Virus record (IMG/VR): IMGVR_UViG_3300045988_005640
Origin: a virus
Taxonomy: Duplodnaviria > Heunggongvirae > Uroviricota > Caudoviricetes
Strand: one strand, 5' to 3'
DNA length: 64,000 nucleotides
In this document: in pieces, positions 2,246 through 35,428 of the stretch
Layout of the letters: each line of letters starts with the position of its first letter
How positions within the stretch are numbered: position 1 is the first letter of the stretch
Position numbers and translations under genes: made by a program
The notes under the pieces: generated by a model
Told to the model about the DNA's origin: nothing
Database searches by the model: none
Seen by the model: the letters and a program-made list of their open reading frames with translations, nothing else

Positions 2246-3712
2246 ATGGCAGATATTACAGAAACACAAGAAAGCTTACCACCATTTAGAATGGGTGAAG
2301 TAGGTTCTTTGGGTCTGAAGGTTAAGAATGGAAGAATCTATGAAGAACCTCGTCAGGCACTAAGGTTCCCTGAAAGTATTAAAACTTTCCAATTAATGAT
2401 GCGTGACCCTGCTGTAGCAGCATCTGTAAATATTATTAAGATGTTTGTCAGAAAAGTCAACTGGAGATTCGTACCTCCAAAGGGAAAAGAGCAAGACCCT
2501 AAAATGCTTGAAAGAGCAGACTTCTTTAATTCTTTAATGGATGACATGGAGCATGATTGGGCAGATTTTATTAATTCTGTAATGTCATTCTGCACTTATG
2601 GGTTCTGTGTTAACGAGAAAGTTTATAAGAAGCGTCAGGGTAAAAAAGGAAAGTACCAGTCTAAATTTGATGATGGGCTAATTGGATGGGCTAAATTACC
2701 AATCAGAAACCAATCAACACTTGATAAGTGGTATTTTGACGAAGACTTTAGAAAAGTTACAGGTGTTAGGCAGAATCTGAGAAATGTTTCACATATTGCT
2801 GGAGCAATTAATCTCGGAGAAAGACCACTAACAAGAAAACTTCCACGAGCTAAATTCATGCTGTTCAAGTATGACGATGAATATGGAAATCCAGAAGGTC
2901 GTTCACCATTACTTAATGCTTATGTACCGTGGAAGTATAAAGTTCAGATTGAAGAGTATGAAGCTGTTGGTGTTTCAAGAGACTTGGTAGGTATGCCAAA
3001 GATTGGTTTGCCACCAGATTATCTTGATGAAAATGCAGAACCTGAAAAGAAAGCTTTCGTACAATACTGCAAGACTGTTGTTAATGATATGATTGCTAAC
3101 GACAGAGCAGGTTTAATCTGGCCTAGATATATTGACCCAGACACTAAAGAGGATATTTTTGAGTTCTCATTAGTTTCTAGACAGGGTGCTAAAGCATACG
3201 ATACAGGTTCTATTATTGACAGATATTCCAAGCAGATTATGATGGCATTTATGTCAGATGTTCTTGCTATGGGTCAGTCAAAATACGGTTCATTCTCTCT
3301 TGCAGATTCTAAGACAAGCTTACTAGCAATGTCAGTAGATATTCTGCTTAAGCAGATTAAGAACGTAATTAACCGTGATTTAGTTGCACAGACTTATGCT
3401 CTTAATATGTGGGATGATGAAGAACACGTACAAATTACATATGATGATATCGAAACTCCAGACCTTGAAGCAATTGGTTCTTATATTCAGAAAACTGTTG
3501 CAGTAGGTGCTTTGGAAGTTGACAAAGAACTATCTAACAAACTTAGAGAGCATATTGGTCTTCCTCCTGCTGATGAATCTCAGCCAGTATCTGAAAAGCT
3601 TTCTCCAAATAGTCAAAGCCGCTCAGGAGATGGTTATAAGACCGCTGGAGAAGGTACTGCAAAGACACCTTCAGCGAAAGACCCAAGCACAGCAAATAAG
3701 GCAAATAAATAA
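2246..3712 (+). CDS. Portal protein (by size and position)
   Basis: About 488-aa ORF immediately downstream of terminase; ATG at 2246 preferred over ORF-track GTG at 2237; no motif confirmed. Confidence 0.55.
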   Translation: MADITETQESLPPFRMGEVGSLGLKVKNGRIYEEPRQALRFPESIKTFQLMMRDPAVAASVNIIKMFVRKVNWRFVPPKGKEQDPKMLERADFFNSLMDDMEHDWADFINSVMSFCTYGFCVNEKVYKKRQGKKGKYQSKFDDGLIGWAKLPIRNQSTLDKWYFDEDFRKVTGVRQNLRNVSHIAGAINLGERPLTRKLPRAKFMLFKYDDEYGNPEGRSPLLNAYVPWKYKVQIEEYEAVGVSRDLVGMPKIGLPPDYLDENAEPEKKAFVQYCKTVVNDMIANDRAGLIWPRYIDPDTKEDIFEFSLVSRQGAKAYDTGSIIDRYSKQIMMAFMSDVLAMGQSKYGSFSLADSKTSLLAMSVDILLKQIKNVINRDLVAQTYALNMWDDEEHVQITYDDIETPDLEAIGSYIQKTVAVGALEVDKELSNKLREHIGLPPADESQPVSEKLSPNSQSRSGDGYKTAGEGTAKTPSAKDPSTANKANK

Positions 3713-11885: not shown

Positions 11886-19913
<8,028 letters not shown>

Positions 19914-21149: not shown

Positions 21150-23531
21150 ATGGCAGATTACAAGTTGAGTGAATTAAACTCAATCGATACAATCCGTTCA
21201 GACGACCTTCTTCATGTCAGGGTTAAAAAGAGACCTGAAATGCTGGGTGATGAAGACCGTCGAATGACCTATCAAGACTTCTTAGCATCTTTTAAACTTG
21301 AAAGATTTGTTCAGATTGCTGGTAGCACTATGGCGGGTGACTTAGGGATTGTTAAGCTACTTTATGGTGGTAAGGTAGTATTTGACCCTACAGGCTCTTC
21401 TGAGATTAATATTGGGGATGTTTTAAAGACTTTTAAAATTAACGCAAATGGTCTTAAACTAACTATTGCAGATGCTTCAAGGTCAGCAACTGTTTACCAT
21501 ACTCTGAATAAACCAAGTCCTAATGAGCTTGGGATGAGAACTAATGAAGAGAATGATGCGAGATACGCAAGGCTTGCTGTTACAAATAACTTCAGCATTA
21601 GACAAGCAATTGTAACTGATGGTGAGCAGTTAACCCTTAAGAAAGCAACCAATGCAGGTGCTTCATATATTCAAGGTAGGGATGCTAATAACCAGCAAAC
21701 TTGGTATGTTGGACAAGGAAATGCAAACAATACTAATGTCTATTTGTACAATCATGCCACTGGCTCAATGTTGACACTTGATGCAACAGCATCGTTTAAC
21801 AAGACACTAAGAGTTATGGGTCAAGTTCAACCTTCTGACTTCTCTAACTTAGATGCTAGGTACTTCACTCAGACAGTGGCTAATCAGAGATTTGCACAGT
21901 TAAATGCTAGTAATGTTCTTTATGGTGCTAATACATTTAAAAAAGATGTTGTATTTAACTCAGATATCCCTGTCATTCTTAAGAATCTAACAGCTAACAA
22001 ACCATTATATATTCTAGGTAGAGATGACCAAAACTCCAACTTGTGGTTTGTTGGTAAAGGTGGTTCGGGGACAGAGATTAAATTTTATAACTACTCTAGT
22101 GATACGGTTTTAGAGTTGTCTGAGACGGCAAGATTTAATAAAACTTTGAGGATTACTGGTCAAGTTCAACCTTCTGATTGGACTAACATTGACTCTAGAT
22201 ACATTCCAGCAGCCACTTTGAGTAATCTTGCTAAACTTAATGTGGCAAACACTTTCGTGAATGTGCAGACTATCGTATCAAATAACGAAGGTTTAGTATT
22301 AAGAAACTTGACACAGGGGCAACCACTATATATCCGTGGTGTGGATACCGCGAACGTATCGAGGTGGTGGTTAGGTGTAGGTGGCGCAAACTCTAATGTG
22401 GTAACCTTAAACAATAGTTACTCTGGTACTCAAATTGCCCTTGAACCATCAGCAATTGTTGCGAATAAGAATTTAGCCATTACTGGTAAAGTTCAACCTT
22501 CTGATTGGTCTAACTTAGATGCTAGATATTTTGTTAAAACTCAGTTATTAAACCAATCTTTAATGACTGTCTCTGTAGATAACCTTGGAAACCCTTCAGG
22601 TTTTAATCTTGGATATTCAGGTTTTGTCAGAAACAATGCGGTTACTAGTGGACTGAAAGAATTGGCAATTCATGTTGCGCACTCTAATAAGACTGCTGCA
22701 CATGCAAGAGGAATCTCTTTTGTGTATGGCTCAAATGGACTGGCAACATTTACCTATGCCTATGACAAAAATGGTGACTATGCTGGAGAAGCACAGATTT
22801 ATACAACTGATTTTAAACCAACCCCTTCAGATATTGGTGCATACACTAAAGCTGAAACTGACCAGAAGATTGCACAGGCAGTAAGTGACTCTACAGACCT
22901 TAACAAAATCTATCCAGTAGGTATTGTAACGTGGTTTAACAGTAACGTTAACCCTAATACAGCACTTCCTGGTCTAACTTGGACGTACCTGAACAATGGT
23001 GTTGGTAGAACTATCAGGATTGCAGCAGCAAATGGTTCAGATGTTGCTACAACAGGTGGTTCAGACTCTGTGACGTTAGCTGTTGGTAACTTACCTTCAC
23101 ACACTCATAGCTTCTCTGCTACCACTTCATCTTTTGATTATGGTACGAAGAGCACTAATAGTACTGGTGGTCATACTCACTCTGTAAGTGGTACAACAAG
23201 TGCTGCTGGTAACCACGCTCACCACTTAGGTCTGCTATTGGTTAATGGTGGTGATGCTCAGTACGGTTATACAACTGTTAGCAATAACAAGACAAGAACT
23301 CTTGACTGGCTTGACAGAACTGATAACAAATTCCCTAACACTAACACAACTGGTAACCATACACACACATGGTCTGGTACTACAAGTAACACTGGTGCTC
23401 ACACCCACTCTGTAGGTATCGGTGCTCACACTCATACAGTTAGTGGTAACACTGGTGGTACAGGTTCTGGTTCAGCATTTAGTGTTACTAACCAGTTCTA
23501 CAAGTTAATGGCTTGGGTAAGAACTGCTTAA
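21150..23531 (+). CDS. Large tail fiber protein with three internal repeats and His-x-His tip
   Basis: 793 aa; three repeats each containing GQVQPSD(F/W)(S/T)N(L/I)D(A/S)RY; C-terminal region with HTHS/HAHH/HTHT motifs and ending ...MAWVRTA, homologous in pattern to the preceding fiber tip. Confidence 0.6.
21780..22560 (+). repeat. Three tandem intragenic repeats of about 335 nt in fiber gene
   Basis: Conserved core ggtcaagttcaaccttctga at 21819, 22158 and (ggtaaagttcaaccttctga) 22495. Confidence 0.6.
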
Positions 23532-30981: not shown

Positions 30982-31172
30982 TACTCAATGTCAATAAGTT
31001 CTTGTGCAATGCTTTTCAGATTACCTTTCAAGAAAACCTTCTCAGAACCTGAAAGAGATGAGTTGTCAATTAACCTGTTCATTCTCTCAAACAACTTCTG
31101 CTTACGATTTTTGATAGTCTCCTTTGAAGCACCTTTCATCATCGCTGCATGGGTTCTTCCACGATGGCTCAT
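30963..31172 (-). CDS. Hypothetical basic protein
   Basis: 69-aa ORF rich in Lys/Arg. Confidence 0.3.
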   Translation of the reverse strand: MSHRGRTHAAMMKGASKETIKNRKQKLFERMNRLIDNSSLSGSEKVFLKGNLKSIAQELIDIEYWRHQK

Positions 31173-31233
31173 AAGCCCTCCTATATAAGATACAGTATAA
31201 GGTACTCTTCCATGAGCACCTTGTCAATACTAA

Positions 31234-33933
31234 TTAGTGAACCTCAAGCCAGCTTTTACCAACCTTACCAGTACCTGTAACAAGTGTTTCTTTCTTAAGA
31301 CCTAAGTTCTTAGAAGCTTGTCCATAATACCAGTCAGTAACCGCTTTCACCTCTGCCGTCATGCTTTCTGGACATTCCCAACTCGTCTCATCGTGATATG
31401 CGCAGAGTAAACGAGCACCAATAGCTGGTTTGCGACCATTCAACTTCATCAAGCCTTCGTCAATCATACGACGACAAGCAAGGTTAATCGCCTCATTTTG
31501 AATCTGAGCCTCTGAACCCATCAAAAGATAGTTCAATAATTTGTGTGGAGATTTACACCACAACCAAGCTCCAGCAACCTTTACAAAACCCCCTTTAGAG
31601 ATTGCAGCGGTCTTACCAAACACCTCTTCAAGTGCCTTTTTAGTTGCTTTGTAGTCAGCTTCCAAGTCATCTAACAGCTTCTTAATTTTAGGCAAACGTA
31701 TAAAGTAAGTTTGTTTAGTCAGTGCACCTTCCTGAGTAGTTGCAGCTTTAATCGTCTTAGCAAACTTCTCATCCCCTGCACCGAACAGCAGTGCATAGAT
31801 ACCATTCTTAGCTTTCTTACGACCCTTACTAATCTCATGGAGAAGATTCTCATCCTGAGTAGCTCGACAAGTCAAGATATCCTGCTCATCATTCAAGCTA
31901 AAGTAAATACTGTTCAGTGTATGTGCATCAGTCCCTGAATAGACAACGTACAGGTCATTCTCAGAGTCATAACGAAGGTACTTATCAATCTCTGGGTTTA
32001 GGTACTCATCAAAGTGTTTGCAGTAATAGCGTCCATCTTCTTGACGAATGAACTCAATTTCTTCTTTACCTTGCGTTACCGCTTTGGTGAAGTCTTTATC
32101 ACCCATAAAGTTACAAAGAAGAACTAGCTGGGCTGAGTTCATATCTACAGAGACAACGTTAGTACCTTCCTCACAAATCCACACTGCCCTCATTGGTTCC
32201 CCATAGACAGCAGCACCAGACGGTACGTTTACAATACCATATTGTGTCATACGTCCAGTTGAAGTACCAAACACCATTGCACCAGCACTAAGGCGACCAT
32301 CAGGACGAATCTGGTTCAACCAACCTTTTTCATCATCCTTTGAGTTCTCAATAGTTCTGCGTCGGTGCATCAAAGTATAGTACTTAGCAATCTTCTGTCC
32401 AAGTTCACCTTCAATCGTATCATAAGATGATTCAGTAAGTTTTGGTGAAGTACGGATTAAGCAAGGCTCAAGTAAATCTGTGTATTTCTTCACAGACCAG
32501 TTATGCTCAATGTACTGGACACCTTCATGCTCAACATAGCTCAAACCACACCGCTCAACCATTTCCTGCCACTTAGGATGTTTTGTAATCATCTTTTTAT
32601 TGTCTTTGAAACGACAAACTTTGACAGGGCGACCGTCTGAGTCTTTCTTGTAGTTCCAGTCATCTGGAATCCAACCAACTGATTTCAAGTAGTCTTTAAC
32701 AACTGCTACCTGAGTCATACGAGAAACTTCAAACTCAATTGGTGTATATGGTGCATCAATCAAACCTGTGTAGCGACTTGACTCAAGTTCAAAGTGGTTA
32801 ACAACGTGGCTGTTATAGTACTTCACAGTTTTGACTGTTTTTACTGGCTTCCAGTCTTTGCACTTCTTACCAATCTTTGCATTCAACTCATTGCAAATTG
32901 CACGAGCATCCCTCATTGCTACAAAACCTTCCTTGTACTCTTCACCAGTTACAGAATTGGTTGGTGTATAGCAATTCCTTTTTTCAATGTTAAAAATCTT
33001 TGTAGTTGGCTTACCAAATGGCTTGATTTCGTATGTCTGCATCTCACCGTTACGCACCTGTTGACGGTACTTCGTCTTAGGGTACTTGGTAATTCTCTTC
33101 AACCCATCTGCATGACCAAATGTTTCAACATACTCATTCCAAGCCTTTGCAAACTCTTCACCAGTTACTTTACCTTTGGTCTTAATAGTTGGAGGTAGAT
33201 GTGGTTCAACCTCTGAAGCAAGCTCATTAGTCAACTTGTCAAGTTCCTTTACATGGAACTCCATAAGTTCTTTATCAGCTTTCCAACCATTGATAGCTTG
33301 CTGGCTCATCCAGAAAGATGTTTCTTTAGCTCGCATGTAGGTTTCATAAGTATCTATGCCACACTTCTTAAGCTTGAGATACTCATTATCAAGTGCCCGT
33401 TTAGTTTTGGCGTTAATACGGATATCTTCTACAACACGAGTGAAGATTTCTGCATTCCACACACCCCAATGTTCAATCTCTGGTTTACGAACACCAACAC
33501 GAGCACCCCATGCAGCCAAACCATGAGCACCTTTATAACCCTTTGGAGTTGGTCTATCCATCCACTGAACACGAGACTGGATAAGAGAATCCTGAAAGAA
33601 ATTACTCCACGGTTTACACTTTGGGTTATCAAAGTTCCATAAATCAGGTGCAATGTGATTGAAAACCCACCAGTCATAACCGAGACCGTTATGGATGCAA
33701 AGACGTTTTGCCTTTAACGCAAACTCAATACCTTCACGTAAGCCACCCTTAATATACTTGGTATACTTGTGACCGAGGATAGGCTCATCTGTAAAGACCC
33801 ATACAGGTGGCTCTTCATCGTCAGATTTATAGTCTGCGAAAGCCATTACGTGCACTTTAGTGAACTCAAGGAGTAAACCATCAGTTTCTGTATCACCAAC
33901 TAAATGTAAGTTTTTAAAATCTACGTTTTCCAT
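31234..33933 (-). CDS. DNA polymerase, family A, with 3-prime to 5-prime exonuclease domain
   Basis: 899 aa; N-terminal exo I motif VGDTETDGL; polymerase motif B-like KNGIYALLFGAG and motif C YHDE; GAGGGAG RBS. Confidence 0.8.
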   Translation of the reverse strand: MENVDFKNLHLVGDTETDGLLLEFTKVHVMAFADYKSDDEEPPVWVFTDEPILGHKYTKYIKGGLREGIEFALKAKRLCIHNGLGYDWWVFNHIAPDLWNFDNPKCKPWSNFFQDSLIQSRVQWMDRPTPKGYKGAHGLAAWGARVGVRKPEIEHWGVWNAEIFTRVVEDIRINAKTKRALDNEYLKLKKCGIDTYETYMRAKETSFWMSQQAINGWKADKELMEFHVKELDKLTNELASEVEPHLPPTIKTKGKVTGEEFAKAWNEYVETFGHADGLKRITKYPKTKYRQQVRNGEMQTYEIKPFGKPTTKIFNIEKRNCYTPTNSVTGEEYKEGFVAMRDARAICNELNAKIGKKCKDWKPVKTVKTVKYYNSHVVNHFELESSRYTGLIDAPYTPIEFEVSRMTQVAVVKDYLKSVGWIPDDWNYKKDSDGRPVKVCRFKDNKKMITKHPKWQEMVERCGLSYVEHEGVQYIEHNWSVKKYTDLLEPCLIRTSPKLTESSYDTIEGELGQKIAKYYTLMHRRRTIENSKDDEKGWLNQIRPDGRLSAGAMVFGTSTGRMTQYGIVNVPSGAAVYGEPMRAVWICEEGTNVVSVDMNSAQLVLLCNFMGDKDFTKAVTQGKEEIEFIRQEDGRYYCKHFDEYLNPEIDKYLRYDSENDLYVVYSGTDAHTLNSIYFSLNDEQDILTCRATQDENLLHEISKGRKKAKNGIYALLFGAGDEKFAKTIKAATTQEGALTKQTYFIRLPKIKKLLDDLEADYKATKKALEEVFGKTAAISKGGFVKVAGAWLWCKSPHKLLNYLLMGSEAQIQNEAINLACRRMIDEGLMKLNGRKPAIGARLLCAYHDETSWECPESMTAEVKAVTDWYYGQASKNLGLKKETLVTGTGKVGKSWLEVH

Positions 33934-33994
33934 TTTTACTCCCTCTAAAAATCATTAACCTCATACATTACTGCAAAAAATTATAAAAAGCAAG

Positions 33995-34024
33995 TTGACA
34001 ATGCACTTGACAAGGTGTTAATCT
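33995..34024 (+). promoter_or_regulatory. Candidate sigma70-like promoter TTGACA-N18-TAATCT in divergent control region
   Basis: -35 ttgaca at 33995-34000; weak -10; region between divergently transcribed polymerase gene and plus-strand gene block. Confidence 0.35.
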
Positions 34025-34191
34025 TTGCGAAGTGGGTTTTTACTTAAAAGGTTACTTAACAGTTTAACTATACAGATACTTTAAAACTCTTAAAAGATTA
34101 TTTAATAGCTTTTAAAAAGCTTTAAAGTATAACGTATAGAATACGTTAAGATAAAAGATTAAAACTTAATAGTTACTTAAAAGAGGCTTAC

Positions 34192-34614
34192 ATGCAGAAA
34201 ATGTTTGTTCACCCAGACATAGCTGACTTTGTTAGAGCTTTGCAGAAGTTGGAAGAACTTGACATTGCTGCTCAACGGGAATATGCTCACCATCACAGGA
34301 GAATGGTTGATATACAACATGAAATAGAGTTGTCTGAAAACTATGAAGATGACTTAAAATGCTCTGTATTTGAGCATATGAAAGATGTTGCTACAGCGAG
34401 GCGTAAAGCTAAAGACACAGTTGCTTTACTAGATTCTCTTAAAAAGAGGTTGCAAAGTGGCACAGACCTGTGTAATCTAGCGTCACTAATTAACGATGTT
34501 GAAACTTCTTGGGATAGACACTATTATCCACGTTCTGAAAAGACACTTGACTTTTCTTCATCAGAAAACTTAAAATGTTCTAGAAAGAAACTTAACCAAC
34601 TGAGAGAGAAATAA
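34192..34614 (+). CDS. Hypothetical protein (first gene of rightward block)
   Basis: 140-aa ORF, charged/coiled-coil-like. Confidence 0.35.
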   Translation: MQKMFVHPDIADFVRALQKLEELDIAAQREYAHHHRRMVDIQHEIELSENYEDDLKCSVFEHMKDVATARRKAKDTVALLDSLKKRLQSGTDLCNLASLINDVETSWDRHYYPRSEKTLDFSSSENLKCSRKKLNQLREK

Positions 34615-34615
34615 T

Positions 34616-35428
34616 ATGAATATCGATGTAGAAAAGATGCTTGAAGAAAAAGGTATTGACGAAGCGTTCTTAATCAATGCCGTAGAAAGCATGGCTATGA
34701 TTCTTCGTGGTAACAACTACACAGAACAGTTTATGCCTGCAAGCTATAACTTGCCTGAAGACAAGTCTGATAACGGTGCTTTTGCAGAACAGGTTAATTT
34801 GATGTTGACAGACACTACACTTGCTCTAGCATCTATTGCGGTTGGTGTTGATGCACTTGCTGAGTTCATTTTTTATGAAATGCAAAAGAATGATTATATC
34901 AGGATGTCAGACGAAGATAAGGAACTGTTGCTGACTAAGGACACTGATTTCATTATTGATACACTTATCTCATCAACAAGTGCTGTTATGGCTGTTCTTG
35001 AGAAGCGCATGGAAGAGAAACTTTCACGATATGAAAAACTTGATTGGGGCGTAGAAGAATTAAACCCACGAATCAAAGAGATTATACAGCAAACTAAAGA
35101 GTCTTTGGAAGAAGCTGTTGAAAATGACTCTGTAGCTGATATAGAACCACTTCAGGTGAAAGTTGCACTGATGATTCCAGCTATCTCCACGATGATGAAT
35201 ATCGTTGCACTAATCCAGCTTTCACAGATGATGGGCACAAGCATTGAGTTCATTGAGAGTATGACTGGTGGTGTGAGTATGCAAGCAATCAATGATGTTC
35301 TGGTGAGCATTGGTGCTTCAATCATTGAAGAGAAGCTGCGCATTAACTTTGGTGATGATTTTGTGAAGCAAATCTCAGCTATGGCTGAAAAAGAGTATTC
35401 ACAGACTAATACTGACCAACTGCACTAA
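34616..35428 (+). CDS. Hypothetical protein
   Basis: 270-aa ORF. Confidence 0.35.
   Translation: MNIDVEKMLEEKGIDEAFLINAVESMAMILRGNNYTEQFMPASYNLPEDKSDNGAFAEQVNLMLTDTTLALASIAVGVDALAEFIFYEMQKNDYIRMSDEDKELLLTKDTDFIIDTLISSTSAVMAVLEKRMEEKLSRYEKLDWGVEELNPRIKEIIQQTKESLEEAVENDSVADIEPLQVKVALMIPAISTMMNIVALIQLSQMMGTSIEFIESMTGGVSMQAINDVLVSIGASIIEEKLRINFGDDFVKQISAMAEKEYSQTNTDQLH

Follow-up and report, generated by a model that had tools for sequence, protein, structure and literature searches.

The polymerase-gp97 spacer

The DNA analysed here, a 64,000-nucleotide stretch (the window), belongs to a Felix O1-like myophage of the genus Felixounavirus, a coliphage, and our subject is the 258-bp intergenic spacer at 33934-34191, which carries two opposed promoters and an array of short repeats. 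The spacer, itself assigned to no strand, is bounded in the map of open reading frames (ORFs) by the gene for a family A DNA polymerase of 899 amino acids (aa; 31234-33933, minus strand; ORF96 of Felix O1) and, on the right, by the gene for the gp97 homologue (140 aa; 34192-34614, plus strand, ATG at 34192). The latter is directly followed by the ORF of gp98 (270 aa; 34616-35428, plus strand), a dNMP kinase and a 663-aa primase/helicase. No ORF of at least 20 aa lies wholly within the spacer, its G+C content is 26% as against 39% for the window, and the polymerase Shine-Dalgarno sequence, read from the sequence as GAGGGAG (33939-33945, minus strand), is invariant in the alignment. A 1.1-kb query around the spacer matched 256 phage records, nearly all of them Felixounavirus, with 98.7% identity to Escherichia phage Andreotti.

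Our comparisons covered three closely related genera and three distant lineages. Scans of IMG/VR for divergent relatives returned mostly the same isolates and two useful extra sequences. The spacer is 257-262 bp long in Felixounavirus, Suspvirus and Mooglevirus. For its 207-bp core (33985-34191), 200 Felixounavirus records share at least 99% identity, and the values for the other two genera are 84-89%. In a four-way alignment of the window, Moogle, Michonne and one Suspvirus contig, the identity of this core (0.85) equals that of the polymerase coding sequence (0.858), while third codon positions reach 0.66 in the polymerase gene and 0.45-0.57 in the three downstream genes, and the polymerase-proximal part of the spacer (33934-33984) reaches 0.74. 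The core surpasses the three downstream genes in conservation, though not the polymerase gene, and the other neighbouring intergenic gaps are unalignable between genera. In strength of selection, the leader of the gp97 operon, which occupies most of the core, equals the polymerase coding sequence. A search of E. coli genomes for copies of the spacer element, as satellites or decoys, returned none.

Probable divergent promoters

Two conserved promoters of the sigma-70 type face away from each other within the spacer, with their -35 boxes back to back and 1 bp apart. The rightward one, P_right, joins TTGACA (33995-34000, plus strand; 6/6 consensus matches, invariant in the three genera and also present in the three distant lineages) to an extended -10, TGT-TAATCT (34016-34024, plus strand; TGnTAnTCT invariant). 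Its layout, TTGACA-N18 including TGn-TAATCT with an 18-bp spacer, is that of a sigma-70 promoter in both the -35 and the extended -10. Among 9-11 sequences of the three genera, TTGACA, the TG at 34016-17 and the T, A, T, C and T of TAATCT (34019-24) never change, while the base after TG and position 3 of the -10 vary, Mooglevirus reading TGGTAGTCT. The leftward promoter, P_left, consists of TTGCTT (33988-33993, minus strand), inside the invariant block AAAAAGCAAG, and, 17 nt from it, of TAATGT (33965-33970, minus strand; TAnnGT). In nine sequences from the three genera T1, A2, G5 and T6 of this -10 are invariant and positions 3-4 vary (TAATGT, TAGGGT, TAGTGT). The consensus match of P_left is weak (3/6 in both hexamers); its -35 and -10, the 17-bp spacer and the conservation of the expected bases nevertheless give it the form of a sigma-70 promoter.

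Across the three genera, substitutions spare exactly the bases that a sigma-70 promoter needs, and we regard the promoter part of our reading as well supported and highly probable. Transcription would then start at about 34030 on the plus strand from P_right and at about 33958 on the minus strand from P_left. The original prediction had described the spacer as a divergent control region, in agreement with promoters that face both ways and with the published detection of RNA from ORF96, the polymerase gene, within 5 min of infection by Felix O1 (PMC3185647). In the same study RT-PCR revealed early RNA for ORF96, 101 and 105, and divergent early promoters were presumed to lie between genes 96 and 97, where none was found (PMC3185647). 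Predicted promoters at this spot are already known from a few GenBank records, and the region was flagged in 2010; for instance, MZ726791 annotates a predicted promoter at P_right, which a simple promoter scanner did not list in our hands. Upstream of the gp97 homologue, a layout like that of P_right is found in Yersinia phage P778 (TTGACA-N17-TAATGT, TGG before the -10), and Pectobacterium phage Arno18 and Kolesnikvirus have TTGACA-N17-TAGGCT (TGC before the -10) and TTGACA-N18-TACATT, respectively.

Other promoter-like sequences were considered. A perfect minus-strand TATAAT (33985 to 33980) was rejected as the polymerase promoter, being lost in Suspvirus and Mooglevirus and having no usable -35, with TTGTCA boxes 10 or 22 bp off. 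MZ726791 also annotates a leftward promoter within the leader (34066-34092, minus strand), whose TATAGT is the reverse complement of an invariant ACTATA and whose -35 (TTTTAA) is poor; it could give rise to an antisense or alternative polymerase transcript. Moreover, Kolesnikvirus leaders possess a second, stronger promoter just before the gene (contigs ~520-600), TTGACT-N18 including TGG-TATGAT. Octamer copies of the kind described below flank and overlap its -35 (CTTTACAG-TTGACTTTAAAG), an arrangement resembling T7 A1 (TTGACTTAAAG).

Octamer array in the leader

The stretch 34030-34191 (plus strand) is the putative leader, or 5' untranslated region (UTR), of the gp97/dNMP kinase/primase-helicase operon, its start being placed from the position of the -10. 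Alignment gives the conserved repeat unit of this leader as C-T-T-(A/T)-A-n-A-G (CTTAAnAG), with the sixth base free; the octamer family CTTAACAG/CTTAAnAG is a definition made in this analysis, not a published family. On the plus strand the first copy, CTTAAAAG (34043-34050), has a conserved core and A or T at position 6, and the second, CTTAACAG (34055-34062), is replaced by CTTTACAG or CTTTATAG in other genera. A degenerate octamer, CTATACAG (34068-34075, plus strand), is invariant in 11/11 aligned sequences, but it has two mismatches to CTTAAnAG and is counted by position and periodicity only. The third copy, CTTAAAAG (34089-34096, plus strand), is invariant; a motif scan added CTTAATAG (34165-34172, plus strand); and the last CTTAAAAG is fused, as read from the sequence, to the gp97 Shine-Dalgarno AAGAGG (34176-34186, plus strand). 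An octamer-like copy adjoins the ribosome-binding site in five of the six lineages.

The repeats named in the original prediction, TTACTTAA at 34040, 34052 and 34173 and (T)AAAAGATTA at 34091/34092 and 34152/34153, lie exactly at these positions. They are real repeats, but the true unit is CTTAAnAG, of which TTACTTAA is an off-register and genus-specific flank; other genera have AACTTAAAAG, CCCTTTACAG or ATCTTAATAG in its place. Allowing at most one mismatch, CTTAAnAG occurs seven times in the leader compared with 1.25 times in local dinucleotide shuffles. The octamers are nearly always sense-oriented with a spacing of mostly 11-14 nt, and the autocorrelation of the leader peaks at a lag of 11-13 in 6/6 lineages (z = 2.1-3.6). 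The octamer as fixed from the window is also enriched in leaders that cannot be aligned with it (P778, 6 vs 0.8; Arno18, 7 vs 0.9; Kolesnikvirus, 4 vs 0.5-0.7). Octamers clustered at 10-14 nt spacing are conserved across genera, as expected of a genuine octamer element. A genome-wide enrichment of the motifs had been put forward as a check: inside the window the leader cluster is the top one and has no equal, whereas outside it the same motif fills the terminal repeat, as described below.

In the single sequence, the motif signals go only weakly to moderately beyond chance. The window holds six copies of TTACTTAA where 5.3 are expected, i.e. no enrichment, and about 8% of dinucleotide shuffles attain the three exact copies seen in the AT-rich leader. 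Six non-overlapping copies of the CTTAAAAG family with at most one mismatch are attained by 1% of such shuffles. These shuffle values hold cleanly for the independent lineages only, as the motifs were chosen after seeing the sequence. Tandem Repeats Finder reported nothing for the repeats, whose units are too diverged. The case for an element beyond chance is made by the comparison with relatives, i.e. by conservation, by octamer enrichment in unalignable leaders and by the preserved pairing of the palindrome.

Hairpins in the putative leader

This palindrome, TAACGTAT-AGA-ATACGTTA, lies exactly at 34130-34148 as originally predicted and is perfect. Its pairing is kept among relatives, but it behaves as a hairpin with compensatory changes and not as a fixed site for a dimeric protein. 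The hairpin, H3 (34131-34147, plus strand; 7-bp stem, 3-nt loop), is 100% paired in 10 distinct sequences. Its stem has changed from A:T to T:A in all other aligned genera, and a second pair has changed from C:G to T:A in Moogle, Michonne and Sf14. The loop AGA becomes AAC in relatives, and no one-sided breaks are seen. A second hairpin just upstream, H2 (34101-34126, plus strand; TTTAA-T-AGCTTT / AAAGCT-TTAAA), has 98% of cells paired in 10 distinct sequences and includes a single U-G wobble, a pair that can form in plus-strand RNA only. H2 overlaps the octamer-like TTTAATAG (34101-34108) and CTTTAAAG (34120-34127), and for H2 and H3 together 98.9% of cells are paired.

In 10 of 100 window shuffles a match to the palindrome pattern was seen with at most three mismatches, and the leader folds slightly better than shuffles (z = -2.4). 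Alifold found almost zero covariation outside H3, and an Rfam scan of 33700-34500 gave only chance-level hits to eukaryotic families (E >= 0.57), none of which reached the gathering score. Neither hairpin is an intrinsic terminator or attenuator: the stems are AT-rich, no U-run follows, and the scanner finds no terminator in the spacer. A larger hairpin with 27-nt arms (34076-34130) was set aside, since its pairing (85%) is kept less well than that of H2 and H3. The hairpins are more simply explained as acting in RNA.

A second promoter of the same family

P_right contains a 23-bp core, GTTGACAATGCACTTGACAAGGT (33994-34016, plus strand; also written GTTGACAAnnnACTTGACAAGGT), which is invariant in the three genera save for three central bases. 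It holds both of the tandem TTGACA hexamers noted in the original prediction (33995-34000 and 34007-34012, 12 bp apart), whose positions 33995 and 34007 are exact. The first hexamer is the -35 of P_right, while the second was rejected as a -35, as AAGTGG and no -10 stands at 16-18 bp from it, and it belongs to the core. A near-identical core is found at Felix O1 21514-21536, the site of the published promoter P41 between genes 40 and 41 (Whichard et al. 2010, PMC3185647). The P41 core reads GTTGACAA(A/T)GCACTTGACAAGGT, one base different. Several Felixounavirus contigs of IMG/VR yielded both stretches and have two core copies, one per site; in the contigs of Moogle, Michonne, SUSP1 and Sf13 only the P97 copy was detected at the stringency used.

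P41 resembles P_right beyond the core. It too lies at a divergent junction and points rightward, with a -10 of the TAnnCT type; its leader has a hairpin, copies of CTTAAAAG, TTTAAACAG and CTTTTAAG, and an octamer adjoining the ribosome-binding site, with about six octamer copies in the Felix O1 21490-21667 region. In contrast to P_right, P41 has a leader of only ~110 nt that is unalignable beyond the core, drives tRNA and structural genes, and carries a T4-late-like TATAAATA box just past the -10. The Felix O1 paper listed P41 but no promoter for the 96-97 region, and reported no obvious RNA polymerase modifier (PMC3185647).

Just past the polymerase stop codon, an intergenic piece (31169-31227, minus strand) that is 94-97% identical across genera holds TTGACAAGGTG-N-TACCTT with a 17-bp spacer, the TTGACAAGGTG context being common to P_right, and is likely to be an internal promoter. 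Six phage stretches from gut metagenomes in IMG/VR also contain the 23-mer GTTGACAAAGCACTTGACAAGGT exactly, with GTATGAT after it (e.g. one at 1806-1828); the nearest relatives of one that was checked are Clostridium phages, and the match may reflect either coincidence or a convergent tandem -35 promoter design.

Octamers at the genome ends

The octamer recurs where genes 23 and 24 of Felix O1 converge (AF320576, 12306-13927), in 1.6 kb devoid of ORFs in which the top k-mers are TCTTAACA (10 copies), CTGTTAAG (8), CTTGTTAG (8) and CTTAAAAG (5). The Felixounavirus Pr103Blw (MW481326) has direct terminal repeats of 581 bp, annotated by PhageTerm (PMC8303462), and these map to Felix O1 12771-13339. 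In the stretches of Pr103Blw that we examined (1-1212 and 87384-88421), the physical left end opens with CTTAACA, present three times at 11-nt intervals; inverted copies (TGTTAA/TGTTAG) come next, considerably more than twelve of them, and usually at intervals of 9-12 nt. The terminal-repeat arrays have both orientations and a spacing of 10-12 bp, and on either side of them are sequences resembling intrinsic terminators. In Arno18 and phiEa104 the corresponding ORF-free junctions have the same top k-mers. Moreover, CTTAACA is one base from CTTGACA, the -35 context of P_right and P41. The octamer is therefore a cis element of the whole subfamily, with three kinds of location: the genome ends and the leaders of P_right and P41.

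Among described systems, the left end of T7 comes closest to the terminal arrays: with a strict period of 13 nt, C(C/T)TAAAG heptamers adjoin the terminal repeat there and surround strong early promoters of the host type, in a region that includes A1-A3 and phiOL; likewise, the CTTAAnAG/CTTTAAAG units of Ounavirinae have a period of 11-13 nt in the terminal repeat and the early leaders, and T7 reads ACTTAAAAGATTAATTTAAAA where the window reads CTCTTAAAAGATTATTTAATAG. This is resemblance only and not homology: the consensus is an 8-mer here and a 7-mer in T7, the phage families are unrelated, and the T7 arrays are at genome ends, not in an internal operon leader. To our knowledge the function of the T7 left-end repeats is also unproven.

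Interpretation and alternative explanations

We tentatively read the spacer as an early divergent promoter region joined to an operator-like array for one putative sequence-specific factor, a combination that we find plausible but short of probable. Host sigma-70 RNA polymerase would start leftward at P_left (TTGCTT-N17-TAATGT) for the polymerase operon and rightward at P_right, at ~34030, for the gp97/gp98/dNMP kinase/primase-helicase operon. P_right forms a two-member promoter family with P41, which occupies the genome's other divergent junction. The initial ~160 bases of the transcript would form a cis-regulatory platform with 7-9 sense CTTAAnAG units at ~12 nt, two hairpins and the last octamer fused to the ribosome-binding site. 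The octamers may be DNA sites for one factor of phage or host origin, and the same putative factor would recognise the dense CTTAACA/CTGTTAAG arrays of the direct terminal repeat. Bound to the initial transcribed region, it would modulate the rightward early operon in the course of infection, most likely by repression or a block, while the hairpins would act in the mRNA, in its stability or processing. The original suggestion that the repeats look like binding sites accords with this reading, in which the sites are putative; taken as a whole, the earlier interpretation is partly supported.

Several points weigh against this reading. The -10 hexamers are weak (3/6 consensus matches), and our literature search found no start-site map or footprint for any Ounavirinae phage. 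A simple operator array would leave unexplained why the stretches separating the octamers are conserved too. Position 6 accepts any base in the leader octamers, whereas C is preferred in the terminal-repeat arrays, and the two sets may therefore not share a binder. Furthermore, an element working only at the RNA level would account equally for the sense-only octamers, the wobble and the compensatory changes of the hairpin, and the extreme AT-richness beside replication genes suits an origin equally.

Nor did we find a candidate binding protein. The protein gp97 was rejected as a generic helical hairpin in its AlphaFold model (pLDDT 72), which gave nothing below E = 0.1 with Foldseek against PDB; Pfam, NCBIfam and PDB sequence searches were empty, and only a PHROGs family of unknown function matched. 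The gp98 model (pLDDT 46) was not used. In an informal comparison, the octamer gave no convincing match to the sites of DnaA, IHF, Fis, Lrp and PhoB.

A bolder version of the operator-array reading makes the octamer the site of one dedicated Ounavirinae DNA-binding protein that would tie the recognition of genome ends, in packaging or end replication, to control or origin firing at both early leaders. We consider this version distinctly unlikely.

The main rival is a transcription-activated replication origin, in which P_right would fire into an unstable duplex, an R-loop or opening would load the phage polymerase and the gp4-like primase-helicase in the manner of T4 oriF/oriG or of the T7 primary origin, and the ~12-bp repeats would be iteron-like. 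This explanation, which we judge somewhat unlikely, is not mutually exclusive with an operator array. In windows of 100, 150, 160 and 200 bp, the AT content of the 64 kb peaks (79%) and nearest-neighbour stability is lowest at 34036-34185, directly downstream of a conserved promoter, i.e. promoter plus unwinding region, and the leader (34030-34191) is also a candidate DNA unwinding element. Very high conservation is consistent with an origin, as is the location of the spacer at a strand switch between the polymerase and primase/helicase genes. The GC skew changes sign there too, but it merely tracks gene orientation and is not independent evidence. On the other hand, the paralogous promoter-leader module lies upstream of tRNA and structural genes, the last octamer is fused to a ribosome-binding site, and the covariation of the hairpin points to RNA. 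The repeats also depart from the iteron type: their core is 8 bp at a 12-nt period, where classic iterons have 17-22 bp, no gene for an initiator was found, and gp97 and gp98 show no initiator-like domain or fold. The literature searched contained no mapped replication origins for the Felix O1 group.

Known phage origins offer partial parallels. T4 origins also combine a promoter with an AT-rich unwinding element (PMC3016281), and in this respect the leader resembles oriF and oriG, where, however, the promoters are MotA-dependent. Much as in the spacer, transcription diverges and base composition shifts at T4 oriE, which requires an early promoter and carries evenly spaced 12-nt repeats (PMC3016281). 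As a detailed analogue oriE was rejected, since its iterons have no proven role (PMC3016281) and it is inside gene 5, antisense to it. In T7, the stretch after the promoter phiOL carries CTTAAAG-type repeats. That stretch serves as a secondary origin in T7.

A purely RNA-level leader is also conceivable, i.e. a structured 5' UTR whose octamers are read in the transcript as a translational operator, as a stabiliser or processing site, or in nut/put-like antitermination; we think it unlikely. It would account for the sense orientation of the leader octamers and the last copy adjoining the Shine-Dalgarno sequence, as well as for the two compensatory changes of H3, the wobble of H2 and the z-score of the leader fold. 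Antitermination would moreover let polymerase pass the many terminators of the operon, and how transcription does so was described as not known in the Felix O1 paper (PMC3185647). The leader recalls lambda nut and rrn boxA in its place just past an early promoter, with one octamer and its flank (CTCTTAAAAG) boxA-like and a hairpin after it. Some octamer copies, CTCTTAA(A/C)AG, resemble lambda boxA, GCUCUUA(A/C)A. A true nut site (boxA GCUCUUUA-like plus boxB) was rejected, however, since the CTC prefix is not conserved between genera (CCC, GAC or GTC elsewhere) and the H3 loop, AGA or AAC, is not of the boxB type. In addition, there are many copies instead of one, and no N-like gene is known. 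Rfam gave no match and covariation is close to zero outside H3. The DNA-level reading is favoured because the motif fills the terminal repeat in both orientations between terminator-like hairpins, where an RNA signal would be unexpected, and because the 11-12 nt periodicity is near the DNA helical repeat.

That the spacer holds only two ordinary promoters, with repeats left over from a tandem 12-mer duplication and conservation due to low divergence or recombination, is highly improbable: the repeats are marginally beyond chance in one sequence, Tandem Repeats Finder was empty and Felixounaviruses are all very close, but inter-genus identity is 0.85 as against 0.45-0.66 at synonymous-like sites, other gaps are unalignable, the octamer is enriched in unalignable leaders, H3 has compensatory changes and the motif dominates the terminal repeat in three lineages.

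Neighbouring genes

The spacer stays joined to the gp97 homologue in all relatives compared. Its left side is more variable, as HNH homing endonuclease genes occur beside the polymerase gene on sides that differ among relatives. In Kolesnikvirus such a gene, at about 1-362 of the contigs, replaces the polymerase gene as the left neighbour of the spacer; in ASO1A the HNH gene, at 3123-3635, is found downstream of that for the polymerase.

On the right, gp98 is called 'minor tail protein' in many records, yet it sits within the early replication operon, and this label looks doubtful. No Pfam family matched gp98. The gene diverges fast (protein identity 85-95% within the genus, nucleotide identity 0.56 between genera), whereas the adjoining leader is at least 99% identical.

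Implications for Felix O1-type phages

We came across no earlier account, in the literature searched, of the leader's repeats and hairpins, of a promoter family with two members or of a connection with the terminal repeat. How transcription is timed was stated to be unknown when the Felix O1 genome was published (PMC3185647). The likely early promoters of the replication genes are now located, and the shared octamer links their leader to the terminal repeats and to a second promoter. If one dedicated protein did tie the genome ends to both early leaders, which we consider distinctly unlikely, the spacer would be both the switch of the replication operon and a primary replication origin of the Felix O1 group, and the 13-nt-period CCTAAAG arrays of T7 would be a convergent counterpart.

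Felix O1-type phages are widely used in Salmonella typing, biocontrol and therapy, and the spacer is best left undisturbed when they are engineered. One short motif and ~200 bp of DNA offer a testable handle on the regulation, the origin use and possibly the packaging of these phages.

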